The position numbers and the translations under genes were made by a program. 64,000 nt of DNA, taken from contig CAWGRK010000009.1 in NCBI GenBank assembly GCA_963824995.1, forward strand, positions 235,934 through 299,933. The letters are read 5' to 3'. Source of the DNA: an uncultured Actinomycetes bacterium. Lineage in GTDB: Bacteria; Actinomycetota; Acidimicrobiia; Spongiisociales; DATADW01. How positions within the stretch are numbered: the first letter of the stretch is position 1; each line of letters begins with the position of its first letter. Shown in pieces: positions 23,436-45,225 of this stretch. Below the pieces are notes generated by a model. That model had not been told where the DNA came from. It was given only the letters and a program-made list of their open reading frames with translations, and searched no databases.

Positions 23436-24224
23436 ATGACTCTCGCGGGGCGGTCGATCGTCGTCACTGGGGCCAGCGGGATCGCTGCCGCCGGAGCACG
23501 CCGCTTCGCCGCCGAGGGTGCCGGCGTATTCGTGATCTCCCTCGAGGAATCGGAGTGCGCCGCGCTGGCCGGTGAGATCGTCGCCGAGGCAGGTCGCGCC
23601 GCTGGGTGCGGGGCGGATCTTCGAGACGAGAGGGAGACGAAGCGGGCGTTCGATGCGGCAAGGGCGACATTGGGGCGGATCGATGGCGCCTTCCTCGTCG
23701 CCGGTGGAAGCGGGCGTCGATTTGGCGACGGACCCATCGACCAGTTGGGTGCCGAGGCGTGGCGCAAGACCATCGAGCTCAACCTGACCACGGCGGCGCT
23801 CTCGGTGGCCGAGACGGTGAGGATCATGCTCGGCCAAGACCCCGAAGGCGGCTCCGTGGTGATGGTGAGCAGCGCCATCGCCCGCCACCCGTCTCCCCGG
23901 CACTTCGGGACCCATGCCTACGCCGCGGCGAAGGGAGCGCAGCAAGCCCTGGTCACGGCGCTCGCCGCCACCTACGCCCCCCGTTCGATCAGGGTCAATG
24001 CCATCGCTCCCGGGCTGGTCGACACTCCGATGGCGGCGAGGGCAGCGTCGGACCCGCAGATCCAGTCCTATGCCAGAGCCAAACAGCCGCTGGCAGGGGG
24101 CATGCTCGACCCGTCGGACGTGGCGGCCGCCGCCGGATTTCTGTTATCCGACGATGCTCGGATGGTCACCGGTCAGGTGCTGGCGGTGGATGGCGGGTGG
24201 GGCGTCACCGAAGCGGGCACCTAA
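23436..24224 (+). CDS. SDR family oxidoreductase
   Basis: VTGASGIA, YAAAK, IRVNAIAPG..DTPM, VDGG. Confidence 0.93.
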   Translation: MTLAGRSIVVTGASGIAAAGARRFAAEGAGVFVISLEESECAALAGEIVAEAGRAAGCGADLRDERETKRAFDAARATLGRIDGAFLVAGGSGRRFGDGPIDQLGAEAWRKTIELNLTTAALSVAETVRIMLGQDPEGGSVVMVSSAIARHPSPRHFGTHAYAAAKGAQQALVTALAATYAPRSIRVNAIAPGLVDTPMAARAASDPQIQSYARAKQPLAGGMLDPSDVAAAAGFLLSDDARMVTGQVLAVDGGWGVTEAGT

Positions 24225-24228
24225 CGGA

Positions 24229-25258
24229 TCAGACCCCAAGCTCATCCCTGACCTCGGCCACCCCGCTCACCAGGCTGGCCAGCTTCGCCTTGGCTGCCCA
24301 GCGCGCTGTCTGGCTCAGACCGCAGTCGGGGGCCAATGCCAGACGATCGGCAGCCACATATTGGAGGCACCGCCGCACTCGGTCGGCGATCACCTCGGGG
24401 GTTTCCACCCAATAGCTCTTGACGTCGATCAGACCGACGGCGACGTCGTGCCGCTCCCCCACCTTCTCGATCGCCTCGAGCTCGGCCATCTCCCTCCCCG
24501 CCATCTCGAGGTGGACCTCGTCGGCGGCTATGTCGAGGAAGGCGGGGAACAAGGGGGCGTAGCTACGGGGAGCGACCGCATGGCCCTTGTAGTTGCCAAA
24601 GCAGAGGTGGGCATCGATGCGGCAACGACCGGCCACCGGTGCAACGGTTCGGTTGAAGACCTCGACCATCCGATCGGGGTCCTCACGGTGGGCGTAACAG
24701 CTCATCGATGGCTCATCCACGCAGATCTCGGTGGCGCCCGCTTCCACAAGCATGCCCAGCTCGGCGGAGACCAGCGGCAGCAGCGCCTCGGTGATGGCCC
24801 AGCGGTCGGGGTAGTCATCGTTGGGAATGAGGCGGCCGCTGAGCGTATACGGCCCGGGCACGCTCACCTTGAGCGGCACGCCGGGAGGCGCCAGACGCTG
24901 CAGCCGGGTGTACTCATCGACCACGCCGAGACCCCTCTCGGCACCCAACCGGCCGCTGATGCGGTGACGGCCCCGCTGGTCGTGCGCCGGCGGCCCGAAC
25001 TCTCGTTTCGTCGGCTCTGCGGCCTCGATCCCGTCGAGGAACCCGTAGAACGAGAGGTTGAAGTCGAGCCGGGTCTGCTCGCCGTCGGTGACCACGTCGG
25101 CGCCTGCGCCGAGTTGGTCGGCGAGTGCCACCGTCACCGCGTCGTCCTGCATCTCGGCGATGTCGTCGGCCCCGAATTCGTCGAGACGGCGCGAGGCGAA
25201 CTCGAGCCAGCCGGGGAACGGCCAGCTACCGACCAGGGTGACGCGGCAGCGGTTGCAT
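24229..25258 (-). CDS. Cobalamin-independent methionine synthase II-like (single-barrel MetE) Zn enzyme; +1 indel near 25245
   Basis: VGSWPFP, TDGEQ.R, PGPYTL, VDEP, HLCFGN, PDCGL Zn-ligand motifs. Confidence 0.88.
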
Positions 25259-25272
25259 CGGCTCGCCTTCCA

Positions 25273-25282
25273 TGTCTAGACA
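25273..25282. promoter_or_regulatory. GntR (HutC-type) operator-like palindrome TGTCTAGACA
   Basis: Between the divergent MetE-like gene and deoC; matches sites at 27665 and 40201. Confidence 0.7.
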
Positions 25283-25312
25283 ACCTGCAGCCCGATGTGG
25301 GACCATCCCCCG

Positions 25313-26029
25313 ATGGAAACTGCACCGCCCGAGTCTGACACGGCCCTCACCGTCGCAGACGTCAGCTACGAAGATCTGGCCGGGGCCATCGACCACTCGC
25401 TCCTCCGCCCGGAACTGACCAGGGACGAGGTCATCGCCGGATGCCAGCTGGCAGCGAAGTATCGGGTGGCGTCGGTCTGTGTCAGGCCCGCCGATGTCGC
25501 CCTGGCCGGCTCGCTGCTCGAGGGATCGGGGGTGGCGGTGGGAACGGTTGTCGGTTTCCCCCACGGTTCGCACAGCACCTCGACCAAGCGGTTCGAGGCG
25601 GAGGTCGCCGTCGCCGAAGGCGCCAGCGAATTGGACATGGTGATAAACATCGGTGCCCTCCGCTCCGGGGACGACTCCTTCGTCGAGTCCGATATCCGTA
25701 CGGTGGTTGGAGCTTCGGGATCGGCCCTGGTGAAGGTGATCCTGGAGAACGCCTACCTCGACGACGAGCAGAAGGTGCGAGGGTGCCGACTCGCCGAGGC
25801 GGCCGGAGCCGACTACGTGAAGACCTCGACCGGCTTCGCTCCGGGTGGCGCCACCATCGCCGACCTCAAGCTGATGCGTGCCAGCGTGTCATCCGCAGTC
25901 AAGGTGAAGGCGGCGGGTGGCGTCAGGAACCTGGACGGCCTTCTCGAGGTGCTCTCGGTCGGGGTCAGCAGGGTCGGCGCCACCCAGACGGCCGCCATCC
26001 TCGACGACTACCGGGACCGCACCGGCTAG
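25313..26029 (+). CDS. deoC: Deoxyribose-phosphate aldolase
   Basis: IDHSLL, VVGFPHG, ELDMVIN, VKTSTGF, VKAAGG. Confidence 0.95.
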   Translation: METAPPESDTALTVADVSYEDLAGAIDHSLLRPELTRDEVIAGCQLAAKYRVASVCVRPADVALAGSLLEGSGVAVGTVVGFPHGSHSTSTKRFEAEVAVAEGASELDMVINIGALRSGDDSFVESDIRTVVGASGSALVKVILENAYLDDEQKVRGCRLAEAAGADYVKTSTGFAPGGATIADLKLMRASVSSAVKVKAAGGVRNLDGLLEVLSVGVSRVGATQTAAILDDYRDRTG

Positions 26030-26918
26030 GCCGGGTCGGACTGCATACCGACGAGCGCCGCACCGATGGCGCCGGCAGCCGAGCCGAGCGAAGCGGCCAC
26101 CACATCTATCTGGTCGGTGGGTACAAGGGTCACCCGCTGGCGGACGGCGTCCCTTATCGGACCGAGCACCAGTTCGCCCGCGGCGGCGATCCCTCCGCCG
26201 ACGACGATCCGCTCCGGTCCGAAAACGGCGACGACGTTGGCCAGACCAATCCCGAGCCAGCCGGCGGCGGCGCGCACCGTGCCGATACTCCGCTCGTCGC
26301 CCTCGGCCACGCCTGCATAGACCTCCTCCACCGTCGCCTTGCCCGCCGCCTCAGCCAACACGTCGGATCGAGCCAGGGCTTCGATGCACCCATGGTTACC
26401 GCAGCCGCACAACGGCCCATCGGGAAGCACCGTTTGGTGGGCGATCTCACCGGCGACTCCGAAGGCACCAAGGTGGAGCTTGCCGTCGATCATCACCCCG
26501 CCGCCGATCCCGGTGCCCAGAGTGATGCAGACGAGCGTGCCGCAACCTGCGCCCGCCCCCAAGGTCCCCTCGGCGAGGGTGAAAGCGCGGGCATCGTTGA
26601 TCATTTGGACACCGCGCCCAGTTCCTGTTCCAATCTGGCGCGCAGCGGGTAGCCCGCCCACGGCCCGGGGAGATTGGGGAAGAGCAGAACGCGGCCGTCT
26701 GCCGGGTCGAACAACCCCGGGATCCCGAGGCCGATCGTCTGAACCGGCCCGTGCCGCTCGATGGCCCACCGCGCCACCTCGGCCAGCCTTTCGACCACGC
26801 CTTCCGGCCCGTGCTGTGCATCGGTGGGAGACGTCGCCCTCGCCACCACCTCGGAGTCGTCGAGCACCACCGCCTTGACGTTGGTGCCTCCCAGGTCGAG
26901 ACCGAGATGACGAGTCAT
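26026..26918 (-). CDS. ROK family sugar kinase; frameshift near 26607
   Basis: GLDLGGT, GIPG, INDA, LGTGIGGG, GEIAH, CGCGNHGCIE. Confidence 0.9.
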
Positions 26919-27643
26919 CACCCCACCCGGTCGGTCGCGTCGCGATGGAGCACCGCGGCGAACACATAGCGCTCAGCGGCGTACACGGTCTCGGTGTGCT
27001 CGAGGGGCGATCCGTCCTGGTCGGATATGGTGCGGCGCTCCACCAGCACGACCGGCTCGACCAGACCGAGCAAGCGCCGTTCCCTTGCGGTGGCGGGTCG
27101 CGCCATCACTTCCGCTTCGGCCCGCGTCGGGATCCATCCATTGGCCTCGAAGGCATTGTGGAGCGAGCCCCGCTCCAGATCGGCGCCGAGCACGGCCGAG
27201 CAACGGGTAGAGAAGACGACCCGCTCGATCGCCATCGGCGTGCCGTCGGCCAGCCTGAGCCGCTCCAACACGAGGGCGCCCTCTCCAGTTGTCAGACCCA
27301 GCGCCTTGGCCTCCACTGCCGACGACTCGACCGTTCCCGATGCGAGGATCTGCGAGGTGGCAGACATGCCGCGGCTTCGCATGCTGTCGGTGAACGACAA
27401 GGGAGATCCAAGCACCCGCGGTACCGGGCGCGGCGCCACGAATGTGCCCTGCCCCCGGGTGCGGTAGAGCAACCGCTCGTTGGCCACAGTCTGGACCGCC
27501 TGGCGCGCGGTCATCCGGCTCACCCCGAAGTGCTCGCAGAGCTCGGCATCCGACGGGAGCCGGTCGCCCGGGCGGGAACTCGCCACCAGCCGCCGCAGGT
27601 GATCGGCGATCTCCTCGTACCGTGGCGGGGTCTTCGTAGTCAT
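26918..27643 (-). CDS. GntR family regulator, HutC subfamily (UTRA domain)
   Basis: LPSDAELCEHFGVSRMTARQA, GQGTFV, RLRLADGTP. Confidence 0.93.
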   Translation of the reverse strand: MTTKTPPRYEEIADHLRRLVASSRPGDRLPSDAELCEHFGVSRMTARQAVQTVANERLLYRTRGQGTFVAPRPVPRVLGSPLSFTDSMRSRGMSATSQILASGTVESSAVEAKALGLTTGEGALVLERLRLADGTPMAIERVVFSTRCSAVLGADLERGSLHNAFEANGWIPTRAEAEVMARPATARERRLLGLVEPVVLVERRTISDQDGSPLEHTETVYAAERYVFAAVLHRDATDRVG

Positions 27644-27664
27644 CGCGCCCTGCTCCGATGCTAC

Positions 27665-27676
27665 ATGTCTAGACAT
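27665..27676. promoter_or_regulatory. GntR operator-like perfect palindrome ATGTCTAGACAT
   Basis: In the short divergent gntR/SIS intergenic region. Confidence 0.78.
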
Positions 27677-27692
27677 TTGATACGATCCGCCG

Positions 27693-28469
27693 ATGCGGTC
27701 GTCCGCCGGACGCTGGCTCGCCGAGGCGCGAACGGTGCTCGAGCGAATCGAGCAGTCTCAGATGGGGTCGATCTTCGCCGCCGCCGAGCGGTGCGCTCAA
27801 GCCATTGTGTCGGGGGGACTGGTCCACCTGTTCGGTACGGGCCACTCCCGAATACCCCTCGAGGAGATGTTCCCCCGCTACGGGTCGTACCCCGGCTTCC
27901 ATCCCATCGCCGAGCTATCGATGACCTTTCATACCCAGGTGGTCGGCTCCAACGGGCAGCGGCAGGCGATGTTCATAGAGAGGACCGAAGGGCTCGCCGG
28001 GGAGATCTTGGCCAACTTCAACTTTGGTGAATCGGACGTGATGATCGTCTTCAGCGTGGGTGGACTGAGCGCCGTCCCCATCGAGATGGCCATGGGGGCA
28101 AGGGAACGAGGGATGACCGTCGTTGCGGTCACATCGCTCGCCGAGTCGACCGCCACCGAGCCTCGTCATCCCACCGGGACCAGGCTGGCGGACCATGCCG
28201 ACATCGTGATCGACCTGTGCACCCCGGTGGGAGATGCAATGGTGACGCTGGAAGGGTTGGCCACACCGGTCGGGCCAGGCTCCACCGTCGCCTATGCCGC
28301 GGTGGTCAACGAGATAAAGGTGCAGACCGCAGAGTTGCTGGTGGCGGTGGGGAAGATGCCCCCGGTTATCACCAGTGCCACAGTCGCCGGCCCGGCCGAG
28401 GCGTCGCGCCTGTTCGACGCCGCCTATGCCCAACATGCGAGGGGGATGGCGAAGGCAATCTCGCCTTGA
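27693..28469 (+). CDS. SIS domain sugar isomerase-like protein
   Basis: VHLFGTGHS, FSVGG, VVAVTS, ADIVID, PVGPGST. Confidence 0.85.
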   Translation: MRSSAGRWLAEARTVLERIEQSQMGSIFAAAERCAQAIVSGGLVHLFGTGHSRIPLEEMFPRYGSYPGFHPIAELSMTFHTQVVGSNGQRQAMFIERTEGLAGEILANFNFGESDVMIVFSVGGLSAVPIEMAMGARERGMTVVAVTSLAESTATEPRHPTGTRLADHADIVIDLCTPVGDAMVTLEGLATPVGPGSTVAYAAVVNEIKVQTAELLVAVGKMPPVITSATVAGPAEASRLFDAAYAQHARGMAKAISP

Positions 28470-28503
28470 GTAGATCTTTGTCCTTGCATCAGTCAGAAGT
28501 TCC

Positions 28504-29703
28504 ATGCTTAATGGACGAACTGTGGGAGGAAGTGGGTCGCACGGGATGCTTCTCGACCTGATACGGACCGGGGAGGCGACGACTCGCCGCGAGCTCGCCC
28601 ACGTCACCGGTCTCTCTCGGTCCACCGTGGCGGTCCGCATCGAGAATCTCCTCGCCGAGGGTCTCATCGCCGAGGTGGGCGAAGCACCTTCGAGCGGAGG
28701 CAGACCGCCGGCCGTCCTCGGGCTCAACCAGGAGGCCGGCGTCGTGCTCGCTGTGGACCTCGGCGCAACACATGCCCGTGTGGCCGTCACCGACCTCGGA
28801 GCAGCGCCGATCGCAGACACGGCCCTCGACCTGGACATCGCATCGGGTCCCGAGAACGTCCTCGGCACCATCAATCAGGTTCTGGTCGTACTGCTCGACA
28901 CCACCGGGCGACCCCCAGGTGAGGTCAAGGGGATCGGCATCGGTGTGCCGGGGCCGGTCGAGTACGCCGCCGGAAGGGCGGTGACCCCGCCGATCATGCC
29001 CGGGTGGGACAGTTACCCGATCCGCGACCGCTTCGTGGATCGTTATCACGTGCCGGTGCTGGTGGACAACGACGTCAACATCATGGCCAGGGGCGAACAC
29101 TGGGCCGCAACAGAGCCATCTGACGATTTCCTCTTCGTCAAGGTGGGTACCGGGATCGGATCGGGGCTGATCCTCGGTGGCAGGCTCCACCGCGGCGCCC
29201 TCGGCGCTGCCGGGGACATCGGCCACGTCCAGGTGGCAGCAGCCGAGGGGATTGTCTGTCGTTGCGGCAACACCGGGTGTCTCGAGTCGGTGGCCGGCGG
29301 ACGGGCGTTGGCCGCCAGGCTGGGCGCTGCGGACACCCGTGCCGTGGTAGCCCTGGTCAAGGGCGGAAACCGCGACGCCATCCAGGCGGTGCGCGAAGCC
29401 GGCCGTCTTATCGGACAGGTGCTCGCCTCGACGGTCAACCTGCTCAACCCGGGGACCATCGTCCTCGGAGGCGATCTCGCCGACGCCGGTGACCAGTTGT
29501 TCGCCGGGATACGCGAGGTGGTCTACCGCCGCTCCACCGCCCTCGCCACCAGCCGCCTACAACTGATCCCCAGCATCCTCGGGGACCGCGCCGGGGTGAC
29601 GGGTGCGGCGGCGATGGTGATCGATCACGTGCTGTCCCCCCACGGGTGGACCGCACACTCAGCTTGGCCCAAGGGGGGGTCCGATGACGGGACGGCCAGA
29701 TGA
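28504..29703 (+). CDS. ROK family transcriptional repressor
   Basis: N-terminal HTH ([16 protein letters not shown]), [24 protein letters not shown]. Confidence 0.93.
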
Positions 29704-29752
29704 AGGGCGCCGGCACCGCCGGCGCCGCCAGGCAACCAAGAGAGGAGGAAGC

Positions 29753-30918
29753 ATGCGACGACCGATAGGTCGGAGCGTCGGACTGCTGGCTCTGCTCGTC
29801 GTCTTCGCCCTTGTGGCGGCGGCGTGCGGCGGGGACGGCGGGACCGACACAACCGCGGCGGGGGGGACCGCTACCACCGCAGCGGGAGGTACCGAGACCA
29901 CGGCCGGTGGGGGGACAGGCACAACCGCGGCAGGAGGTACCGAGACAACGGCGGCGGCAGGGGGCGAAGGGCCATTCACCATCGGGGTGAGCAACACCCT
30001 GGTCGGCAACGGCTGGCGTGAGCAGATGATCTGCGCGATCAAGGCCGAGGCGCTGGCCAGCGGAGTCGTCGACGAGGTGGTCGTGGTCAACCGCAACGGC
30101 GGACCTACCGAGCAGATCGCCGACCTCGAAGAGCCTCATCTAGCCAGGGTGTCGACGCCATCATCTTCAACCCGACCGACCGCGAGGCCCTCAACTCGGT
30201 GATCGAGGAGGGCGTCGCGCAGGGGATCGTGGTGGTGGCGGTCGACCAGGCGGTGACCGCCGAAGGCGCCTACGTCGTCACCAACGACCAGGTCGCCTAC
30301 GGCCGGCTCGGAGCCGAGTGGCTGTTCGAGCAGCTAGGTGGCGAGGGCAATGTCGCCTACATGCGCGGGATCGACGGAGTTCCCGCCGACACCGACCGCG
30401 ACACCGGCTTCCAGGAGGCGCTCGCCGCCAACCCGGACATCACGGTGGTGGCAGAGGTCTTCACCGGTTGGGACCCGTCGACGGGTGCCCAGCAGGCCCT
30501 CGACATCATCACCACTCAGGAGATCGACGGGATCTGGACCTCGGGGATCGACTACACCGTGGTCGAGCAGTTCTCGGCCGCCGACAAGCCCTTCGTGCCG
30601 ATCGTCGGGGCGGACAACAACGGGTTCGTCCAGCAGCTCATCGAGCTGTAGGGCGACGGTCTGACCGGAGCCGCGGTGACCAACCCGCCGGCCATCGGCG
30701 GGGTGGGGACCTCGATCGCCATCTCCGGCTCGCAGGGCGAGGACGTGGAAAGGGAGACGATCCTGACGCCGGAGGTGTTCGACAGCGACGACCAGGAGGC
30801 GCTCGAGGGTCTGTACGACCCCGACCAGCAGGTCGGGTGGAGCACGTACGTCGAGATCGACCCATACACCAGCTACGAGGCCGCCCAGGTCTCGGAGTGC
30901 AAGGGACCCGGGGAGTGA
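29753..30918 (+). CDS. Sugar ABC transporter substrate-binding lipoprotein; frameshift near 30135 and in-frame TAG at 30649
   Basis: AGGAGG RBS, lipobox AAAC, Thr/Gly/Ala linker, IGVSN...NGWREQM, periplasmic binding protein type I character. Confidence 0.85.
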
Positions 30919-30925
30919 GCAATCA

Positions 30926-30994
30926 AGGAACGAGCGGCCTCCGGCCGGGCTCGTTCCTGCTACCCGAGGGGGGTCGGCTGGCCGCCCCCTCGGG
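30926..30994 (+). terminator. Two hairpins after the binding-protein gene (mRNA stabiliser or terminator)
   Basis: AGGAACGAGC...GCTCGTTCCT and CCCGAGGGGG...CCCCCTCGGG. Confidence 0.45.
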
Positions 30995-31040
30995 CATCCC
31001 CCATCCCGTCGACAACTCGGTCACGGCGGAGACTCACCTT

Positions 31041-31138: not shown

Positions 31139-32621
31139 ATGACCGACCAAACACTCCTCGAGACGCGCCAAGTCGCCAAGAGCTTCGGCTCGGTGGTGGC
31201 GCTGCGCTCGGTCGATCTCACGGTGCGACCGGGGGAGATCCATGCCCTGCTCGGCGCCAACGGGGCGGGCAAGAGCACCCTGGTCAAGATCCTCTCCGGG
31301 GTGTTCCCGCCGAATTCCGGCACGATAGCGTCAATGGGGCACAGATTTCACCCCGCACGCCCGGCCGATGCGATGGCAGCCGGACTGGCCACCGTGTTCC
31401 AGGATCCGGCGCTGATTCCGGATCTGACGGTCGATCAGAACTTCCGCCTCACCGGGGTCGATACGGGTCGGTGCGGATCGTGGCTGGAGACGATGGACAT
31501 GGGCGATCTCGACTTCGACAGTCTCGTCAGGGAACTTCCTCTCGAGGTCTTGCGGCTGCTCGACCTCTCCCGGGCGCTGGCCCACGACCCGCAGTTGCTC
31601 CTGCTCGACGAGATCACCGCCGCCCTTCCCGCCGATCAGGCGGAGCATGTCTTCGCCGTGATGCGGGACTGGGTGGACAAGGGTCGGTCGGTGCTCTTCA
31701 TCACCCATCGCCTGGCCGAGGTGCTCAGGATGTGCGACCGGGCGACCATCCTGCGCGACGGCCGCAACGTCGCCAGCGTGGTTCCGGGTGAAGGTGGTGA
31801 GGCGCGCCTGGTGGAGGCGATGCTCGGCCAGGAGTCGCCGAGGAACATCTCGCCGAGCCGAGCGGACCCCAGGTCCAGCGGCGAAGCGGCTGACGTCGCC
31901 TCGAGGCGACCGACCTTCAGTTCGGGCGATCAGGTCAACGGCATCTCCTTCCAGTCTCCGAGCCGGCGAGATCCTCGGAATCGTCGCGCTCGAGGGCCAA
32001 GGCCAGGACCGGCTCTTCGATCTCCTGGCCGGAGACCGCCGACCCGACTCCGGCGAGGTCATGGTCGAGGGAAAACCTCTCTCGGCGCGACTCTCCTTAC
32101 GACGCCATTCGACGCGGCGTGGTGCTGGTGCCGTCCGATCGCCTGCTCGCCTTCTGCCGAAGCGTTCGGTGCGGGAGAACCTGGCCATTCCGCTCTACAA
32201 CCGGCGCGGTCGCTGGCTCAGCCTCGTCGGGGACGAGGACGAGCGCGCCGACAAGGCGATCGACCGGCTCGTCGATCGACACCCGGGCCCAGCGCCAGGT
32301 GCGACGGCTCTCTGGCGGAAACCAGCAGAAGGTGGTCATCGGGCGCTGGCTCGCCTCGGGCTTCCGAACCCTGCTCTGCTTCGACCCCACCCGAGGAATC
32401 GACATCCAGACCAAGCGGCAGATCTACGACCTGCTGCGCGAGATCGCCGATGACCGGCGCCGCGGTGCTGATCTACACGAGCGAGTTGCCCGAGATCCCT
32501 CTGGTCTGCGACCGGGTGCTGGTGCTGTACACCGGGCGGGTCGTCCACGAGCAGGCCGCGGCCACCGCGACCGAGGAAGGACTGCTGTCGGCCGCCCACG
32601 GGCTTGGGGCAGACGGCGTGA
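31139..32621 (+). CDS. Sugar ABC transporter ATP-binding protein (two NBDs); several frameshifts
   Basis: GANGAGKST, LLLDE, LSGGNQQKVV, DPTRGID across frames. Confidence 0.88.
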
Positions 32622-33638
32622 CACGCCACCGCGCCGCCCGTCACCACGTCGGAGGTGTCGACTGGCCGCGGTGGCGCCGCCGTCAGGGCTGGTCGGTCGG
32701 CGTCTGGCTGCTGCTCGTCGTTCTCATCGCCTGGTACACGCCGTTGGTCCCCGACTTCGGCAACTTCCAGATCGCCTCGATCGCCAAGAACAGCCTTCCT
32801 CTGATCTACCTGGCGATCGGGCAGGCGGTGATCGTCATCGCCGGTGGCATCGACCTCTCGGCTCGGGGCGATGATGGTGCTCACCAAAGCACGGCGGCCG
32901 GTCCTCATGGACGAACAACCGTTGTGCGTGATCTGCCTTGATGGTCGGTCTGGGAATCATGCTCGTCGCCGCTGTTCTCAACGGCGCCGTCGGTTGGGTG
33001 ATCAACGTCTCACGGGTGCCCGACATCGTGGTGACCCTGGCGACGAGTTTCATCTACTCCGGGCTGGCGCTCATGGTTCTCCCCGGCCCCGGTGGGGGGA
33101 CCGCCCCGGGCTTCCGGTTCCTCTTCACGGGTCGCGAGACCGGCACCGGATCGAATCTTCTGGCCGGCGCTCGTGATGCTCGATCATCCCGGCCGTCGTC
33201 GTGGCCTGGTTCATGCGCGCGGACCCGGACCGGCCTCTCGCTCTACGCCACCGGCAGCGACCGCAACGCCGCCTATCTGTCGGGGTGTCGACACGGCCGG
33301 GCCAAGATCATCGCCTATGCCGTCGGCGGGGCATGGCGGCCATCGCCGGGCTGGCCACTGTGGCGATCACCGGCAGCGGCGATCCCCGCTTCAGCATCGG
33401 CGCCAACGCCACCCTCAACAGCGTCGCCGCGATCGTCCTCGGCGGCGTCGCCCTGACCGGCGGGGTCGGATCGGTGGTCGGGGCGGTCGCCGCCGCGATC
33501 ATCGTCTTCTTCCTGAGCCCGATCCTCAGCGCGATGGGGATCGATCCCAACAGCGCCCAGGTCGTCCAGGGGACCTTGATCGCCCTGGTGATGATGCTGG
33601 CCGGACTGCTCGGCCTGCGCCGGAGGAGGGCCGAGTGA
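32618..33638 (+). CDS. Sugar ABC transporter permease; several frameshifts
   Basis: GGIDLS, IVVTLA, AAIVLGGVALTGG.GS. Confidence 0.85.
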
Positions 33639-34639
33639 CCGCCGAGATCCAGCCGCTGCTCAACGCTGCCGGGGCCCCGTCGGCAGGCCCGCTGGGCCCG
33701 GATCGCTGGCCGATCATCCGCTCTATGGTGCTCGGCGGCGTGCTGGTCGTGCTGATCCTGGTCACCGGCGCGATCCAGCCGAACTATCTCATCGGTCAGC
33801 GGGCTTCGCAACACCGCTGCTGCTCGCCGCTCCGCTGGGGATCATGGCCGCGGGGCAGACGATCCTGCATGCTCACCGGCGGCATCGACCTCTCGGTGGC
33901 GATGATCGCCACCGGGGCCGCCTACGTCGCCGGCAACCGCTCACCGAGCGGCGCCGCCATCGCCATCGTGTTCGGCCTGATGGTCGGGCTCCTGGCCGGT
34001 GCGGCCAACGGCGTCGGAGTGGGCGTGTTCCAGGTCAATCCGCTGATCATGACCCTGGCGATGTCGGCCATCCTCCTCGGCCTGTTCACCTCGTGGGCCC
34101 AGACCATTTTCACCGGGTCGACCACGGTCGCGCCGTTCATCAAACGGATGGGGGGTGGGTCCTTCCTCGGCAACCGGATCCCCTACAACGCCCTCGTCTG
34201 GGCGCTGGTGGCACTGCTGATCATGTGGATGCTGCAACGGACCGGCCTCGGACGGCTCATCTACGCCGTCGGTGACAATCCGATGGCAGCCCGCCTCTCG
34301 GGGGTCCGGATCTGGCAGGTCCACCTGGCGGTCTACACGATCGCCGGGATGCTCGCCGCACTGGCCGGGATCATCCTCGCCGGTCGCACCGGAGCGGTCG
34401 ACCTGCAACTGGCCAGCAGCTTTCTCCTGCCGTCGGTGGCGGCGGCGGTGATCGGGGGCACCTCGATCTTCGGAGGGGTCGGCAGCTATTCCGGAACGAT
34501 CCTCGGGGCGCTGATCCTGGCGGTGCTCAACTCGATGCTCACCTTCCTCAACGCCGGTCAGGCGATCCAGCAGGTGGTGTACGGGTTGATCGTCCTCGCC
34601 TTGGCCTGGCTCTACGCCCGGGTGACGGCCGAGCGATAG
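33635..34639 (+). CDS. Sugar ABC transporter permease; frameshifts in the 5' part
   Basis: LTGGIDLSV, GRLIYAVGDN..AARLSG, AAVIGGTSIFGG. Confidence 0.88.
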   Translation: MTAEIQPLLNAAGAPSAGPLGPDRWPIIRSMVLGGVLVVLILVTGAIQPNYLIGQRASQHRCCSPLRWGSWPRGRRSCMLTGGIDLSVAMIATGAAYVAGNRSPSGAAIAIVFGLMVGLLAGAANGVGVGVFQVNPLIMTLAMSAILLGLFTSWAQTIFTGSTTVAPFIKRMGGGSFLGNRIPYNALVWALVALLIMWMLQRTGLGRLIYAVGDNPMAARLSGVRIWQVHLAVYTIAGMLAALAGIILAGRTGAVDLQLASSFLLPSVAAAVIGGTSIFGGVGSYSGTILGALILAVLNSMLTFLNAGQAIQQVVYGLIVLALAWLYARVTAER

Positions 34640-34647
34640 GAGCGGCA

Positions 34648-35805
34648 ATGGCCCTATCGGACATCGAGAGCCGCGGTCGTAGGGGTGGGCTTCATCGGCG
34701 TCGCCCACGTCGAGGCGCTGCGGCGACTCGGGGTCGACGTCGAGTGGTGTGGTCGGCTCGAGCCCAGAGCGGGCCGGGCCAAAGGCGGAGGCCGCCAATC
34801 TCCCTCCTGTCCTACGACAGCCTCGAGGCGCTCTCGGCCGACCCGAGGTCGATGTGGTCCACATCGCCAGTCCCAACCACCTGCACGCCGAGCAGGTGCG
34901 GGCGGTGCTCGCCGCCGGGAAGCACGTCGTCTGCGAGAAACCGCTGGCTCTCGACACCACCGAGACCGCCGACCTCGTCGCCGCGGGCCGAGGCAGCCGG
35001 CATGGTCAACGCGGTCTGCTTCAACCTCCGCTTCTATCCGCTCTGCCACCAGATGCGGGCGCATGGTCGCATCCGGCCAGATCGGGCGCCGCGGTTCGTC
35101 ACCGGCAGCTATCCTCCAGGACTGGCTCCTGCTCGACACCGATTGGAACTGGCGTCTCGTGCCGGACAAGCCGGGGAGCTGCGCGCAGTGGCCGACATCG
35201 GCTCGCATTGGCTCGACCTGTCTCGGTTCATCACCGGGCGCAGGATCGTCGAGGTGATGGCCGACCTCCACACCTTCGTACCGGTCCGCCGCCACCCCGC
35301 CGGACCGGTCGAGACGTTCGCCGCGAACGAGCGAGGACGACGATCTGGTCGAGGAGGAGATGACCTCCGACGACGCCGCCGGAATCCTGCTTCGCTACGA
35401 GGACGGGGCACGCGGGGTCTTGGCCATCTCCCAGGTCTCGGCGGGGAGGAAGAACTCGTTGAACCTGGAGGTCGACGGCTCCGACTCGGCGCTGTCCTGG
35501 AACTCCGAGGACCCCGACCGACTCTGGATCGGCCATCGCGGCCGCCCCAACGAGATCTCGCAGCGCGACCCGTCGCTGGCCACCGAGGATGTCGCCCGCA
35601 TGATCGGCTACCCGGGCGGCCATGTCGAGGGATACCCCGACACCTTCCGGGCGCTCTTCGCCGAGGTCTACGCCGCGGTTGCCGAGGGGCGCCAACCGGA
35701 CAACCCACCTATCCGACCTTCGCCGATGGTCACGACGCGGTTGCGGTGACCGAGGCGGTGGCTCGTAGTTCTGACCAACGCCGCTGGGTGAAAGTCGAGC
35801 GATAG
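34648..35805 (+). CDS. Gfo/Idh/MocA family oxidoreductase; many frameshifts
   Basis: GFIGVAHVEALRR, SPNHLH, HVVCEKPL, QDWLL..TDWNWR, ADIGSHW. Confidence 0.85.
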   Translation: MALSDIESRGRRGGLHRRRPRRGAAATRGRRRVVWSARAQSGPGQRRRPPISLLSYDSLEALSADPRSMWSTSPVPTTCTPSRCGRCSPPGSTSSARNRWLSTPPRPPTSSPRAEAAGMVNAVCFNLRFYPLCHQMRAHGRIRPDRAPRFVTGSYPPGLAPARHRLELASRAGQAGELRAVADIGSHWLDLSRFITGRRIVEVMADLHTFVPVRRHPAGPVETFAANERGRRSGRGGDDLRRRRRNPASLRGRGTRGLGHLPGLGGEEELVEPGGRRLRLGAVLELRGPRPTLDRPSRPPQRDLAARPVAGHRGCRPHDRLPGRPCRGIPRHLPGALRRGLRRGCRGAPTGQPTYPTFADGHDAVAVTEAVARSSDQRRWVKVER

Positions 35806-35815
35806 GAGAACGACC

Positions 35816-36732
35816 ATGAAGATGGGACTGCTGACCGCACCCTTCGGCCGACCCCGCTCGATGGAGGTGGCCGACTGGGCCGCCACCGAGGGGTTCGAGA
35901 TGCTCGAGGTTTGCGCCTGGCCCCAGGGTGAGGGTGTCGCCCGTCGCTACGGCGGAGTCACCCACGTCGACGTCGAGGACTTGTCCGAAACCCGGGCATC
36001 CGAGATCGTCGACGAACTGGCCAACCGCGGGATCACGATCTCCGGACTGGGCTACTACCCCAACCCGCTCCACCCCGACCCCGAGCACGCCGAGACCGTC
36101 AACGACCATCTCAAGAAGGTGATCACCGCGGCAGAGATGCTCGAGGTGCCCGTCGTCAACACCTTCATCGGCGCCGACGGCTCCAAGACCCAGGCGGACA
36201 ACTGGGCCGACGCCAAGAAGGTATGGCCGGAGATCGTCGAACCATGCCGCCGACCACGGGGTGCGCATCGCCATCGAGAACTGCCCGATGATCTTCTCAC
36301 ACGACGAGTGGCCCTCAGGGCACAACCTCGCCCACACCCCGAGCATGTGGCGCACGATGTTCGAGGAGTTCGGCGAGACGGTCGGGCTCAACTTCGATCC
36401 GTCCCACCTCGTCTGGCAGATGATCGATATCGAGGCGGCGGTCGACGAGTTCGGCGACCGCTTCTATCACCTCCACGCCAAGGACCTCGAGATCGACCAT
36501 CACGGGTCTCTACGAGAACGGGATCCTCTCCGCCGGGATCGGCTGGCAGGTGCCCCGGCTTCCCGGGTTGGGCGACGTCCCCTGGGAGCGGCTGTTCGCC
36601 GCCCTCTACCGCTCCGGCTACGACTACGTCTGTTGCGTCGAGCACGAGGACCGGCAGTGGGAGGGCTCGGACGACCTGGTGAAGCGGGGTTTCCAGCTGG
36701 CACGCGACGTACTCGCCCCGTACGTGCATTGA
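35816..36732 (+). CDS. Sugar phosphate isomerase/epimerase (AP_endonuc_2 TIM barrel); frameshifts
   Basis: YYPNPL, IAIENCPM, GLNFDPSH, HAKD, PGLGDV.W, VEHED. Confidence 0.88.
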
Positions 36733-37649
36733 TCGTCCGAACCGTTCTGGGGGACGTACCCGCCGGCATGCTGGGCGTGACATACGCCCACGAGCACGTC
36801 ATCCTCGACGGCCCGCTGGTGGTGGAGAGATTCCCCGAGCTCCATCTCCCCTCGGTTGACGATGCCGTCACCGAACTGCGTGACGCGGCAACGGCCGGGG
36901 TGGGAACCATGGTCGACGCCATGCCCGGCGATGCGGGGCGCGACGTCGCCAGGCTGGCGGCAGTCAGCCGGGACAGCGGTATCCACCTGGTGGCGACGAC
37001 CGGCACCCACACCGCCCGCTGGTACAGCGAGGATCACTGGTCACGCACCGAGCCGGCGACGGCACTGGCGGCGCGTTTCGTGGCCGACCTGACTACCGGT
37101 GCCGACGGAACCGAGCACCGTTGCGGTGTCATCAAGGTGGCGACCCTCGGTGAGTCGCCCGACCCCGTCGAGCGCGGTCAATTTGAGGCCGCCGCCGAAG
37201 CCCATCGGACGACCGGAGCGCCGATCCTCACTCACTGCGAGAACGGCGAGGGAGGCTTCGGGCAGGTTGAGACCTTCTCCGCGCTCGGCGTCCCGCTCGA
37301 TCGGGTAGTGCTGTCGCATACCGACAAGGTCACCGATCTCGGCTACCACCGCGACCTGCTCGACACCGGAGTCAGGTTGGAGTACGACCAGGCGCTACGC
37401 CACGACGGTCCCGAGCCAAACCCGACCGCAACCCTCGTCGCCTCGATGTGCCAGGAGGGCCACGCCGATCAGATCCTCCTCGGCACCGACGCCGCCCGCC
37501 GCTCCCTTTGGACGACCCTCGGCGGCTCCCCCGGTCTCGCCTGGCTGGCCACCGGCTTCGCCGAGATTCTCGAGGCGGCGGGCCTGGACGCAGCGATTCG
37601 GCAGCAGATACTCGTCACCAATCCGGCCAACTGGCTGGACTGGGGCTAG
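36729..37649 (+). CDS. Phosphotriesterase-family (PHP/PLL) amidohydrolase
   Basis: GVTYAHEH, GVIKVA, ILTHC, LSHTD, LGTD, NPA. Confidence 0.9.
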   Translation: MIVRTVLGDVPAGMLGVTYAHEHVILDGPLVVERFPELHLPSVDDAVTELRDAATAGVGTMVDAMPGDAGRDVARLAAVSRDSGIHLVATTGTHTARWYSEDHWSRTEPATALAARFVADLTTGADGTEHRCGVIKVATLGESPDPVERGQFEAAAEAHRTTGAPILTHCENGEGGFGQVETFSALGVPLDRVVLSHTDKVTDLGYHRDLLDTGVRLEYDQALRHDGPEPNPTATLVASMCQEGHADQILLGTDAARRSLWTTLGGSPGLAWLATGFAEILEAAGLDAAIRQQILVTNPANWLDWG

Positions 37650-37652
37650 GCA

Positions 37653-37865
37653 AGACGGCGGACGACGGACGACGGACGACGGACGACGGACGACGGACGA
37701 CGCACGGAAGGAAATCCAAATCCTGCCCCCCGCTGCCTTCTCTCTGTCCCCCCGCGGGGGAAGGGTCCCGCTGCGAAGCAGCGGGTAGGGGGCTGGTCAA
37801 CTCCCAACTGCGCTCAGCCGCGCTCCGTTTTGTAGCGACAACCGCAAAGGCGGGGGAGGCAGGAA
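37653..37865 (+). repeat. Composite repeat: (GGACGAC)x6 plus palindromic element within TCCTGCC/GGCAGGA inverted ends
   Basis: Heptamers 37660-37701; element CTGTCCCCCCGCGGGGGAAGGGTCCCGCTGCGAAGCAGCGGGTAGGGGG from about 37744. Confidence 0.8.
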
Positions 37866-37868
37866 CCG

Positions 37869-38210
37869 TCAGTCATCCAACTTGTAGTTGGGTTGGTAGA
37901 GCTCGACTTCGACGCCGCCGGGCATGAGGAAACGGGTGGTGGGGCCGTACCCGTAGTCCTTTACCTCGGTGGTGAATTCGACGCCCTTTGACTTGAGGTC
38001 CTCCACCGTGGACTCGATGTCGTCGCAGGTGAAGGAGACGTCGTGTCGCACCGATTCGTCGGGGTGACAGCCGATCTCGCCCGCCGGTGCACGGAAGATC
38101 AGCCACCCGTCCCCCGTGTCGGTGGCCGGGATCCCCAAGGTGTCGCGGATGAATGGCCGCAACGCATCGGCACCGGGGGTGAAGAACATGGCGTGGATTC
38201 CGGTGATCAT
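37869..38210 (-). CDS. VOC (glyoxalase/extradiol dioxygenase) family protein
   Basis: MITGIHAMFF, SFTCDDIESTV.DLK.KGVEF, MPGG.EVELYQP. Confidence 0.85.
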   Translation of the reverse strand: MITGIHAMFFTPGADALRPFIRDTLGIPATDTGDGWLIFRAPAGEIGCHPDESVRHDVSFTCDDIESTVEDLKSKGVEFTTEVKDYGYGPTTRFLMPGGVEVELYQPNYKLDD

Positions 38211-38248
38211 TGACCCCTCCTCGATCTGCTCCCCCATTCTGGATGAAT

Positions 38249-38969
38249 TCATGCCTGGGCGCCTCCGTCCCGGGTTCCAACCGCCACTTCGTCGGCCCAG
38301 ACGATGGCGTTGCTGTGCTCTCTCAGGTACGACGCCGGACATTCCGGCCCCACCGGGCCCTCGAGAACCCGTCGCAGGATCTCCCGCTTCTTGCCGCCGG
38401 CGACCAACAACCAGACCTCGTTGGCGGCGAGGAGTTGCGCCATCCCCACCGTCACCCCGTGTTCGATGGGCAAATCGATCCCATAACGGGCCAGCCCTTC
38501 TCGAGTCTCCTTGGCAAGCTCGACCACCCGGGTCGAGTCACCCGGCTCCGATCCAGGCTCGTTCATCCCAAGGTGCCCGTTGGATCCGAGCCCGAGAACC
38601 GCCAGGTCGATGCCTCCCGTGGCGATGGCGTCGACACGAATGCACTCGGTATCGAGGTCGGGGGCGTCGACGTCTATCCGGTGGAACCGACCAACCTCGA
38701 CGTGGTCGAGCAGTTGGCGGCGCAGCATCGACTCGCACCTTCCGGGGTGACCGACCGGGAGTCCGATGAACTCGTCGAGGAGAATGACCTCGGAGCGGGC
38801 CAGAGATGCGCCACCGGACACCAGCGCTTCGATACACAGGTGCGGGGGTATCGCCCGGATGCCAGGCACATCCGCAGCCGCGGAGTTCGCGCCGGAGACG
38901 ATCTGCCAACTCCTTGGCAACACCCTTAGCCCATCGAGTGGTGGGGAGCACCTCGAGTCGAAGCGTCAC
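38249..38969 (-). CDS. nagB: Glucosamine-6-phosphate deaminase-like protein; frameshifts in the 5' part
   Basis: [32 protein letters not shown]. Confidence 0.75.
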
Positions 38970-40168
38970 CCCCCGGCGACGATCCGGTCGACGAAGTCGC
39001 CGCTTGCCGGGTCCTTGAGGATCAGCTTGCGCCGACCGTCGGGGAGGGTCTCCTCCTTGATGACGATGTGGCCGTCGTAGGTGCCGGCTCGCGTTCGATC
39101 CGCGCCGGCCTGTCCACCGCCGCCACTCGAGGTCGACCGGCTCCCAGCGCCTCGACTCGGCCGAGCGGTAGCAGGCGTCCATGATGGCGTTGACCACGTA
39201 GCCGTCGTAGAAGGTCTCCTGGGGCTCGTCGCCGCCATCCATAGCGTCGAACATGTCCGTGAACATGTCCACGTAGCCCAGTTCGGATACCTCGTCGCCC
39301 ACCGGGAACAGCCATCCCTTCTCGGTCTCCGCCTTCTCGGCGACGTAACCGCCGCTCCCTCCGGCGGTGAACATCTCGTACCCGGTGCGGAGGAAGTGGT
39401 TGAGCCAGATGGTGCCGTCGGTACCCGCCACCTCGTCGCGCAGGTCCATGCCGCCGCGGAACGTCCAACTCACTTCGAACTGTCCGATGGCGCCCGACTC
39501 GAATCGGATGAGGGCGATGGCGTTGTCCTCGTCGTCGATTGGATGGACGAAGGTGTCGGTCCAACAGGTCACCTCGACCGGCCGGTTGTCCTTGCCGACG
39601 AAGTTGCGGATGATCTCGATGCAGTGGCAACCGAGGTCGATGATGGCTCCGCCACCGGTGAGACGGCCGTCCCAGAACCAGGCGCTGTGAGGACCAGGGT
39701 GGGTCTCTCTGGAGCGCACCCAGGTGACCTCGCCGATCGCCCCGTCCCGCACCGCGGCCACCGCTTTGAGCGACTTCGGCGTGTAGCAAAGGTCCTCTAG
39801 GTAGCCGGCGAATACCCCGGCCGATTCGACTGTGTCGAGGATCCGCTTCGCCTCAGCGGCAGTCGCGGGCCAGCGGCTTGGTGCAGAGCACCGCCTTGCC
39901 GTGGGCGGCGGCCATGGCGATCGCTTCCTCGTGGAGATGGTTGGGCAGACCGACCACGACGACATCGGTGTCGGGGTCGGCTACGGCGTCCTCCAGGCTG
40001 GTGGTGAACCTGCGGGATGGCCCATCGCTCGCTGAAAGCGGCTCCGCGCTCTTCGCTGCGCGAGTAGACCACCTCGACGCGGTCCCGACCCCGCTGACCG
40101 TGGAGAGTCTGCGTGTAGAACTCGCCGATCAGCCCGGTCCCCAGCATGGTGATGCGATGGCTCCGCAT
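38966..40168 (-). CDS. Gfo/Idh/MocA family oxidoreductase; several frameshifts
   Basis: [37 protein letters not shown]. Confidence 0.85.
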
Positions 40169-40200
40169 CGATTCCCTCCACCTCGTCGACCGGCGCCGAT

Positions 40201-40210
40201 TGTATAGACA
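40201..40210. promoter_or_regulatory. GntR operator-like site TGTATAGACA
   Basis: 33 nt upstream of the Gfo/Idh/MocA start; one mismatch to the other two sites. Confidence 0.6.
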
Positions 40211-45222: not shown

Positions 45223-45225
45223 GCC

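Follow-up and report, generated by a model that had tools for sequence, protein, structure and literature searches.

The stretch of DNA analysed here, referred to below as the window, comprises 64,000 nucleotides from an uncultured actinobacterium of the class Acidimicrobiia (GenBank assembly GCA_963824995.1, contig CAWGRK010000009.1, positions 235,934 to 299,933). All window positions are coordinates of this 64-kb stretch, in which an island at ~23.3-40.2 kb carries a single-barrel MetE-like protein amid genes of sugar metabolism; this protein and its clade are called METE. It was found that the core of the island is an ancient and widespread operon module, which comprises a ROK kinase, a SIS_2 protein of the NagS family, a short-chain dehydrogenase/reductase (SDR) and METE, and which elsewhere mostly includes a UlaG-like hydrolase of the metallo-beta-lactamase (MBL) fold. 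That the module is real and functionally linked is held with high confidence, and it points to an undescribed step in sugar metabolism. An earlier note on this DNA had proposed that METE was recruited into a GntR regulon of this genome; instead, METE belongs to an old module common to at least eight phyla.

A gene neighbourhood conserved across phyla

Species genomes were scanned with an alignment of METE, and 578 of the 600 listed pattern matches were found to encode a METE relative. The best 80 loci of these at least 578 relatives (labelled L001 and so on, with phyla taken from the record titles) form the neighbourhood sample. Their open reading frames (ORFs), called with a codon-score gene caller, were clustered, representatives were annotated and the families were mapped back by tblastn; additionally, 196 neighbour proteins from METE loci were scanned with Pfam. 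A partner was counted when its gene lay within 6 kb of METE, and the 47 loci with at least 4 kb on each side are termed well-flanked. The loci come from Actinomycetota, Acidobacteriota, Planctomycetota, Verrucomicrobiota, Chloroflexota, Gemmatimonadota, Latescibacterota, Armatimonadota and other phyla. The partner counts, for all 80 loci and for the 47 well-flanked ones, were as follows (GFO, Gfo/Idh/MocA oxidoreductase; PTE, phosphotriesterase-family hydrolase).

SIS_2: 56/80; 37/47
MBL-fold hydrolase: 51/80; 29/47
SDR: 48/80; 33/47
GFO: 37/80; 24/47
ROK: 32/80; 24/47
PTE: 5/80; 3/47
FAD_oxidored: 4/80; 3/47
PhyH: 4/80; 3/47

The linkage of METE homologues to sugar genes that the earlier note had proposed as a check was thus obtained, led by SIS_2, SDR, MBL, ROK and GFO in the well-flanked loci. 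The same note had missed the most constant partners, namely the NagS-family dehydratase role of the gene that it listed as 'SIS' and the UlaG-like MBL, of which the window has none. The usual order on one strand is [SDR][ROK] SIS_2 [GFO][SDR][FAD-ox] METE MBL [PTE][GFO GFO]. In 47 of the 76 loci with 1 kb or more of downstream sequence, no more than 300 nt separate the METE stop from the start of the MBL gene, and genes abut or overlap in, for example, L012, L065, L010 and L040. This MBL gene belongs to Lactamase_B_2/_3, and its closest solved relative is UlaG (E 8.7e-9); a tblastn search with five MBL orthologues, which found the gene in 52-53 loci, gave no match in the window or in its nearest relative, L001. 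In L007 and L048, METE-MBL is followed on its own strand by a gene for DeoC, the aldolase of the island.

The METE neighbours that were scanned showed no met-gene context, and neither a stand-alone Meth_synt_1 domain nor DUF1852 (MesX) was matched by Pfam among the 196 neighbour proteins and 161 window ORFs. A split MetE was rejected as an explanation, given that no partner consisting of Meth_synt_1 only occurs in the window ORFs or in the neighbour proteins scanned. As for the context expected of an epoxyalkane:coenzyme M transferase, no alkene-monooxygenase or coenzyme M-related family was found by Pfam among the neighbour proteins.

Some loci carry further genes beside METE. In Latescibacterota, PhyH dioxygenases and a DAO-type oxidase accompany it, and in one of these loci (L073:12066-13942) an EcoRV-like endonuclease and a D12-class adenine methyltransferase come right after METE-PhyH, both being absent from the sister loci L069 and L074. 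In a planctomycetotal locus (L075:11861-13234), METE-MBL is followed by a DUF6513 protein with a weak pterin-binding (DUF4346) match, which may be coincidental. In L007, from an acidimicrobiian relative, a phage T4 gp19-like tail-tube gene (L007:2849-3655, -) lies directly upstream of the SDR-METE operon.

The METE clade, its active site and its fold

A word-indexed search returned at least 8000 METE-related proteins, counted as clusters at 90% identity. The best 120 matches are 340-366 aa long and come from many phyla, one being 90% and the other 119 being 67-72% identical to METE; the typical family member has ~344 aa and one barrel, thousands of such proteins being ~70% identical to METE, and 65-70% identity is kept across at least eight phyla. 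In a library reduced to 50% identity, the METE group collapses to a single representative (P0121, 66% identical), the next full-length relatives are 32-46% identical, and 153 representatives reach E <= 1e-30. In a tree of 43 rows, all 17 family rows fell into one group (support 85/89), which together with P0125 reached a support of 100/99, and the end branches of the METE family measured 0.06-0.29 versus 0.28-1.47 for the other rows. Therefore, the METE clade is discrete and slow-evolving.

Look-ups in the ESM Atlas and in protein clusters gave generic methionine-synthase names only. METE scored below every NCBIfam methionine-synthase equivalog cut-off (PRK04326, 174 of 406 bits; PRK09121, 113 of 392; PRK00957, 60 of 258), and the model for the two-barrel MetE of ~750 aa (TIGR01371) gave 50.2 bits against a cut-off of 930, METE having one barrel. 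In this respect the earlier note is supported, the protein staying below the cut-off of all named methionine-synthase families.

The active site, in turn, is intact. According to the available text of a study on MetE and its relatives (PMC7857596), the E. coli enzyme binds zinc through H641, C643, E665 and C726 and contacts homocysteine through S433, E484 and D599. The equivalents in METE, in fragment numbering, are H213, C215, E247 and C308 for zinc and S7, E56 and D177 for homocysteine, and all were invariant in 20 of 20 family sequences. All seven align with the motifs of MesD (PDB 3RPD). When more distant relatives are added, 27 of 32 rows retain all seven; of the other five, P0125, P0154, P0164 and P0169 differ and P0163 is truncated. 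An AlphaFold model of METE (pLDDT 82.9, pTM 0.86) superposed with a TM-score of 0.81 on MesD 3RPD, to which METE is 24-25% identical, and of ~0.8 on the C-terminal barrels of MetE, the UroD and MtaA folds being far behind. Two invariant loops specific to METE, PAHDQRG and GNYKG..PR.Y, are rich in basic residues and were modelled with low confidence; they may bind an anionic co-substrate.

In relatives, too, there is a link to sugars: a METE-like barrel is fused to a PfkB sugar kinase in P0259 and to a Kelch propeller in P0178, both at 32-35% identity and with the seven residues kept. No fusion of METE was found among proteins of 593-2000 aa at E <= 1e-30, a result that speaks weakly for a family that stands alone. 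Three metagenome proteins of odd length, in which METE is joined to pieces of SDR, FAD_oxidored or PTE (P0142, P0217 and P0183), were discarded because they look like read-through into neighbours. A complex prediction for METE and SIS_2 with two alignments gave no support, a result that weighs neither for nor against binding.

A NagS-family partner that lacks N228

The island SIS_2 protein matched NagS (SCO4393, PDB 9eol) with E 8.2e-34, the motifs GHS, R, E and GD being aligned. As reported in the available text of its description (PMC12680351), NagS is the sole characterised member of its family, dehydrates N-acetylglucosamine 6-phosphate (GlcNAc-6P) and N-acetylmannosamine 6-phosphate to an unsaturated product, and depends on the essential residues H53, R64, E94 and D179. 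These residues, the feature that the two proteins share, correspond to H51, R62, E96 and D181 of the island protein and were invariant in 16 of 16 orthologues from METE loci; a ROK kinase as partner would likewise suit a sugar-6-phosphate substrate. In contrast to NagS, the sugar-contacting N228 is not kept, being replaced by T, A or another residue in the SIS_2 orthologues. The same source reports, in its available part, that NagS homologues at 26-36% identity had negligible or no activity on GlcNAc-6P. Thus, the island SIS_2 is probably a sugar-6-phosphate beta-eliminase or 2,3-dehydratase, and its substrate is probably other than GlcNAc-6P. The genomic setting also differs, since in Streptomycetaceae nagS is syntenic with dmdR1, and methionine synthase goes unmentioned in the available text (PMC12680351).

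The island and its gene content

Between 21.7 and 43.1 kb, 161 stop-to-stop ORFs reach a length of 75 aa or more; each was scanned with Pfam, and 27 of them also with NCBIfam. Every gene class listed in the earlier note was recovered at its place by these scans, as given below.

23271..24224 (+), SDR oxidoreductase (adh_short_C2, E 1.9e-51; likely true start near 23436-23460)
24229..25273 (-), METE, single-barrel MetE-like Zn enzyme (PF01717, Meth_synt_2, E 1.3e-21)
25295..26029 (+), DeoC, deoxyribose-phosphate aldolase (TIGR00126, 224.1 bits, cut-off 117.3 reached)
26026..26972 (-), ROK-family sugar kinase (ROK domain split over two ORFs)
26918..27676 (-), GntR/HutC-type regulator (GntR helix-turn-helix, HTH, E 2.1e-15; UTRA E 3.1e-26)
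27693..28469 (+), SIS_2 protein, NagS/UPF0309 family (PRK02947, 279 bits, cut-off 135 reached)
28504..29703 (+), ROK-family repressor, winged HTH plus ROK (ROK E 5e-57, HTH_24 E 1.3e-6)
29684..30918 (+), CUT2-type periplasmic sugar-binding protein (Peripla_BP_4, E 4.7e-38 in its middle piece)
31139..32941 (+), double-domain ATP-binding cassette (ABC) ATPase (ABC_tran in two frames; NCBIfam monosaccharide-importer ATPases, all below cut-off)
32938..34639 (+), two BPD_transp_2 permeases (Pfam and NCBIfam scans)
34648..35805 (+), Gfo/Idh/MocA oxidoreductase 1, GFO1 (N- and C-terminal domains in separate ORFs)
35816..36682 (+), AP_endonuc_2, xylose-isomerase-like TIM barrel (Pfam)
36770..37649 (+, start approximate), PTE-family hydrolase, phospho-sugar-lactonase-like (PTE, E 3.3e-48; phospho-furanose lactonase model 102.7 bits, below its cut-off of 630)
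37869..38342 (-), VOC/glyoxalase-fold protein, partial match (PF00903, E 1.7e-6, C-terminal 47 profile positions only)
38249..38965 (-), NagB/AgaI-like sugar-phosphate deaminase/isomerase (Glucosamine_iso, E 1.1e-15; galactosamine-6-P isomerase model 122.9 bits, below its cut-off of 271)
~39000..40168 (-), Gfo/Idh/MocA oxidoreductase 2, GFO2 (C-terminal domains in ORF 38541-39980; N-terminal Rossmann domain in ORF 39856-40128)

The region is thus a genuine island for carbohydrate catabolism, controlled by two repressors, one of the HutC-type GntR kind and one of the ROK family. The island SDR, 49-52% identical in tblastn to the SDR adjoining METE in L007 and L063, is the orthologue of the SDR that lies just upstream of METE in other phyla. 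A periplasmic location of the GFO enzymes was rejected, their N-termini having no twin-arginine motif.

The left flank (window 1-21600) holds the atp operon, glyA, prfA, rpmE, rho, thrC and hom, and the right flank (40263-64000) holds lysA, Ku, a tripartite ATP-independent periplasmic (TRAP) transporter, panB, whiB, prs and glmU. Both consist of ordinary actinobacterial core genes, and therefore the 17 kb sits as an insert between hom and lysA. There is no compositional break relative to the flanks, G+C being 66-69% throughout the window. Within the flanks, one stop-to-stop frame (15710-17869, -) contains DUF1385 followed by PCRF and RF-1, so that either two genes share one open frame or a stop was lost; a Ku-domain protein (41755-42636, +) lies immediately right of lysA, and a small MazE-like antitoxin ORF is found at 57058-57303 (+).

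A predicted three-promoter regulon

The earlier note had described METE and deoC as divergent genes sharing an operator-like palindrome, and this was confirmed. The sequence TGTCTAGACA is a perfect 10-bp palindrome with exactly two copies in the 64 kb, and a third, inexact copy marks the right edge of the island.

25273..25282, TGTCTAGACA, between or over the starts of the divergent METE and deoC
27666..27675, second exact TGTCTAGACA, in the gntR/SIS_2 divergent promoter
40201..40210, TGTATAGACA, one-mismatch copy upstream of the leftward GFO2-NagB-VOC genes

With up to one mismatch, 3 sites were found versus 0.63 expected, a number reached by 3 of 100 shuffles; with up to two mismatches, no enrichment was seen (6 found versus 12 expected). 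Of the 80 loci, only L001 and L007, both from actinobacterial relatives, contain exact copies, the remaining 78 having none. In both relatives the palindrome occupies the same position in the gntR/SIS_2 spacer as in the window (L001, 5739-5748; L007, 8761-8770) and is also found upstream of the SDR-METE genes. A three-promoter regulon of the HutC-type GntR protein, with TGTCTAGACA as its predicted operator, is well supported as a prediction. The regulator is of the same subfamily as DasR/NagR (HTH plus UTRA), and the core GTCTAGAC is also contained in GGTCTAGACC, a string present in the available text of papers on dre sites (PMC4333415, PMC2853113, PMC4398421). However, the flanking bases differ, TGTCTAGACA standing here against GGTCTAGACC there.

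Uptake genes, terminal aldolases and hints of one-carbon chemistry

The transporter of the island recurs next to METE in another phylum. In two Chloroflexota loci (L040:380-9862 and L050:3855-9609), whose binding protein is 77-80% and permease 72.5-74% identical to those of the window, a run of binding protein, ABC ATPase, permease and GFO leads straight into METE-MBL, in L040 also with an AP_endonuc_2 gene in between; therefore, the right arm of the island belongs with METE. The GFO and AP_endonuc_2 proteins of L040 are 45-56% identical to those of the window, the GFO upstream of METE being 45% identical. The high identity of the uptake genes across phyla, as opposed to ~45% for the enzymes, suggests recent lateral transfer of the uptake genes. 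Among PDB entries, the binding-protein orthologue matches 4pe6 best (E 3.6e-34), ahead of binding proteins of the ribose and YtfQ types, and the island binding protein is classed by its sequence as a CUT2 monosaccharide type. AP_endonuc_2 genes occur in at least 12 METE loci.

The terminal aldolase varies: DeoC in the window, L001, L007 and L048; Eda in L055, L078 and L067; an RraA-like protein in L015 and L049; and a DHDPS/NanA-like protein in L044, beside a BNR sialidase. Hints of amino sugars or glycans are scattered, including NagB-like genes (window, L011 and L079), sulfatases, GH109-like and PIG-L proteins and NanM-like Kelch proteins. In L044 (4835-17996, Pyrinomonadaceae), the module lies in an apparent sialoglycan locus with the BNR sialidase, a NanA-like lyase and an FCD-type GntR regulator, and a large gene downstream was taken as a TonB-dependent receptor by size only.

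Some loci carry genes reminiscent of one-carbon (C1) metabolism. In L055, a single strand encodes, in order, a URO-D/MtaA-like protein, GntR, SIS_2, SDR, Eda, a corrinoid protein, METE and MBL; the corrinoid protein has the DxHxxG motif and scores 223 bits with the MtgC model (MtgC/MtbC-like) and 199 bits with TIGR02370, both below cut-off. The URO-D-like gene is found in L054, L055 and L078, the three Anaerolineae loci whose upstream sequence is long enough; its H-x-C motif is not conserved between L054 and L055. In L035, PurU (TIGR00655, 364 bits, cut-off 286) stands between SIS_2 and METE, and genes at the same place in L051 and L076 fall into the cluster of this PurU. The corrinoid, MtaA-like and PurU genes may thus be read as a hint of C1 chemistry.

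A proposed pathway and the alternatives to it

The reading favoured here is that METE catalyses a homocysteine-dependent thiol alkylation whose donor derives from a sugar phosphate, a proposal held tentatively, with a confidence slightly short of the halfway mark. Alkyl transfer to homocysteine is favoured because the zinc and homocysteine residues are untouched. The earlier note's idea that METE removes or salvages an alkyl group is likewise a conjecture, in favour of which stand only this intact site and the corrinoid, MtaA-like and PurU genes of a minority of loci. In such a pathway, a modified sugar of monosaccharide size would be imported and phosphorylated, and the NagS-type enzyme would then take off the 3-substituent, giving an unsaturated or 2-oxo sugar phosphate. 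The zinc-bound homocysteine-type thiolate of METE would accept an alkyl group, in the simplest case methyl, from a sugar-derived donor, and in Anaerolineae this group may travel via the corrinoid protein. The SDR and a lactonase-type hydrolase (MBL elsewhere, perhaps PTE here) would oxidise and open the product, and cleavage would fall to an aldolase, DeoC here and Eda, RraA-like or DHDPS-like proteins elsewhere. Gene content, conserved linkage, the intact zinc/homocysteine site, the catalytic residues of NagS type and the operator copies are established, while the substrate, the order of steps and the chemistry of METE are the parts of this scheme that we infer. That the group moved is indeed methyl is possible, if rather doubtful. 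A bolder proposal, likewise regarded as unlikely, would make METE and its relatives in the clade a fifth kind of folate-independent homocysteine methyl (alkyl) transferase, which takes the group from a NagS-activated sugar phosphate or, in Anaerolineae, from a corrinoid protein charged by that sugar. Among candidate substrates, S-ribosylhomocysteine, methylthioribose, fragments of mycothiol or bacillithiol, Amadori compounds, O-methyl inositols, 2'-O-methylribose and N-acyl hexosamines derived from sialic acid were considered and are left open.

Several points weigh against this favoured reading. A direct sign of a methyl donor is missing in 77 of the 80 loci, the corrinoid protein occurring in one, URO-D-like genes in three (all Anaerolineae) and PurU-type genes in three. 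Once NagS-type chemistry has taken place, methanol could be released from a methyl ether at O3 or O4 or from an enol ether at O2, so that a methyltransferase is not strictly needed. A zinc site with His/Cys/Cys/Glu ligands is also suited to Lewis-acid catalysis, of which alcohol dehydrogenase is an example, and the loss of the site in the relatives P0125, P0154 and P0164 indicates that the fold tolerates other uses. In 4 of the 47 well-flanked loci, SIS_2, MBL, SDR and ROK are all missing. DeoC (3/80), PTE (5/80) and NagB-like genes (2/80 plus the window) are rare elsewhere, and these three are not conserved parts of the module. Finally, in this genome the METE start is out of frame and many partners are broken, and the island may not work here.

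Three other functions were weighed. In a glyoxalase-like route, the NagS-type enzyme would yield a 3-deoxy-2-oxo-aldose 6-phosphate, the zinc-thiol of METE would add to its aldehyde or enal and isomerise the adduct to a thioester, MBL would hydrolyse it, and SDR would oxidise the 2-hydroxy acid to a product of the 2-keto-3-deoxy-6-phosphogluconate type for Eda-type aldolases. This would give every conserved gene (ROK, SIS_2, METE, MBL and SDR) a role, and it agrees with the glyoxalase II fold of MBL, with the terminal aldolases found elsewhere, which are pyruvate lyases for 2-keto-3-deoxy acids (Eda, RraA-like, DHDPS-like), with the VOC gene of glyoxalase fold in the window, and with an old yellow enzyme-type ene-reductase after METE in L053. 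However, MBL is closest to the lactonase UlaG (E 8.7e-9) rather than to glyoxalase II, the chemistry is without precedent in the MetE fold, free homocysteine would be an odd catalytic cofactor, and the corrinoid, MtaA-like and PurU genes would stay unexplained; the route is considered improbable. A similarly low probability is given to a non-thiol role, in which the zinc of METE would act as a Lewis acid on the carbonyl or enediolate of a sugar phosphate, as a decarboxylase, isomerase or hydratase in a Ula-like route. The UlaG-like MBL directly downstream, AP_endonuc_2 neighbours that weakly resemble UlaE/SgbU epimerases (46 bits), the presence of the decarboxylase UroD in the same fold clan, and the invariant Arg/His/Lys-rich loops, which would suit an anionic sugar phosphate, are in its favour. 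Nevertheless, a changed substrate should have changed the site, and all three homocysteine contacts and the Cys-rich zinc site of thiol alkylation are invariant.

It could also be argued that METE is an ordinary folate-independent methionine synthase that happens to lie beside sugar genes, belonging either to the MesA-D type or, as the catalytic half, to a split MetE. Sources name it methionine synthase, its zinc and homocysteine site is intact, and its best NCBIfam model is the 'methionine synthase' PRK04326 (174 bits). Against this stand the curated cut-offs, all of which it fails to reach (174 versus 406 for that best model), the same-strand, abutting linkage to SIS_2, SDR and MBL across at least eight phyla, the lack of any stand-alone Meth_synt_1 or DUF1852 match in the neighbours and window ORFs scanned, and a corrinoid partner in only 1 of 80 loci, which together make this explanation very improbable.

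Frame breaks in the window

The ROK kinase, both GFO proteins, AP_endonuc_2 and all transporter components (binding protein, ATPase and permeases) have their domain matches in different frames. Such breaks had been hinted at by the word 'corrected' in the earlier note, and they were indeed found in many island genes. The in-frame body of METE (24232-25245, 338 aa) is intact, with ATG codons at 25273 and 25258 out of frame; in L001, the N-terminus is intact (MQPRPLRVTVIGSWPFPGW) behind a Shine-Dalgarno-like run, the window being 5 nt shorter there. The ROK kinase has a single break near 26620, a 1-base gap in a run of C relative to the intact copy of L001. The binding protein is spread over at least three frames, and AP_endonuc_2 has two breaks, its L040 orthologue matching three pieces in three frames. 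Gaps relative to L001 are spread very unevenly: 39 (33 of a single base) occur in the 3.3 kb of transporter genes, the stretch of 4.3 kb that runs from DeoC to the ROK repressor has 2 single-base gaps and 3 longer ones, located at a gene end and between gntR and SIS_2, and the METE body has none. Outside the island, hom is split over two frames (21698-23126, -), with NAD_binding_3 in ORF 22281-23126 and the remainder plus ACT in 21698-22741, and has six small indels relative to L001. Among the TRAP genes DctQ, DctM and DctP (43174-46261), the DctM match begins at profile position 50 and the DctP match ends at 201 of 286; these partial matches suggest further frame breaks beyond the island.

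It is conceivable, though somewhat unlikely, that the uptake arm or the whole island is a decaying relic made of pseudogenes in this genome. At least 12 frame breaks fall in the genes from binding protein to AP_endonuc_2 and in GFO2, while the atp operon, glyA, rho and thrC, as well as SIS_2, GntR, DeoC and the ROK repressor, showed no break; the gaps relative to L001 are concentrated in the same transporter genes, few lying between DeoC and the ROK repressor and none in the METE body, and the METE start is out of frame. On the other hand, the housekeeping gene hom is also split, the flanking TRAP genes look truncated, and single-base gaps of L001 itself lie in genes, such as SDR, whose window copies are intact, a pattern to be expected if both records were assembled with uneven quality. 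The assembled sequence alone does not separate such unevenness from decay of the uptake arm.

Relation to known systems and significance

The L-ascorbate (Ula) pathway uses the lactonase UlaG, the decarboxylase UlaD and the epimerase UlaE. The module resembles it in that the MBL following METE is closest to UlaG (51/80) and the AP_endonuc_2 neighbours are weakly UlaE-like; it differs in that scores are far below the family cut-offs, UlaD is missing and the window lacks MBL. The frlABCDR system for fructoselysine and Amadori compounds combines a GntR/UTRA repressor, a SIS-fold 6-phosphate enzyme, a sugar kinase, AP_endonuc_2 and a transporter, the same types as in the island; however, FrlB is a double-SIS deglycase, FrlD is a PfkB kinase, and frl is not known to contain a MetE-like, MBL or GFO gene. 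With the MtaABC-type corrinoid systems, the L055 operon shares a formal set of MT1, carrier and MT2 (URO-D/MtaA-like protein, corrinoid protein and METE), whereas the whole set occurs in only 1 of 80 loci, amid sugar-phosphate genes, and no RamA-type activating gene was seen in the loci scanned.

Among the closest known systems are the folate-independent methionine synthases MesA-D (Price et al. 2021), which, according to the available text of PMC7857596, are also single Meth_synt_2 barrels of ~340 aa that keep the zinc and homocysteine residues; as for them, a donor other than methyl-folate is expected for METE. The corrinoid protein adjoining METE in L055 recalls the one proposed for MesA and MesB in the same source. 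In contrast to MesA-D, METE lies in phosphosugar operons rather than with Wood-Ljungdahl, Mtr or DUF1852 genes, and it is far more conserved across phyla (65-70% identity). The distance between METE and the Mes clades was judged by NCBIfam scores (best 174 of 406) and by the 24-25% identity to MesD, the models not being matched to individual Mes clades; of the Mes partner genes, DUF1852 was absent from the 196 neighbours and the island ORFs, and just one of the 80 loci has a corrinoid protein.

Methyl groups that block sugar catabolism are also dealt with by cytochrome P450, which, as the available texts of PMC6292453 and PMC9400963 report, demethylates 6-O-methyl-D-galactose oxidatively and yields formaldehyde. 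The problem would be the same, whereas the island has no P450, and a thiolate route would retain the methyl group as methionine. The mlp methyltransferase clusters, as far as the available text of PMC10418091 describes them, were set aside as unrelated to the METE module. No published description of a MetE-like enzyme in a sugar operon was found in a search that covered few subscription journals, and within that same literature the earlier statement that the locus matches no described pathway holds.

The METE clade is very large (at least 8000 clusters at 90% identity and at least 578 genome sites) and is annotated as methionine synthase everywhere, whereas its genomic company speaks of sugar phosphates. 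Once its reaction is known, a widespread annotation would be corrected, and a physiological role would be gained for those NagS relatives outside Streptomyces that show little or no activity on GlcNAc-6P. With its five genes, the core is of a size that permits reconstitution in vitro. The module may also reveal how methylated or otherwise blocked sugars are handled in Acidobacteriota, Verrucomicrobiota, Planctomycetota and Chloroflexota. If METE were indeed a fifth kind of transferase, common bacteria of soil and water would remove methyl groups from sugars without oxygen and bank them as methionine, which would represent an unrecognised link between glycan degradation and C1 and sulfur metabolism.

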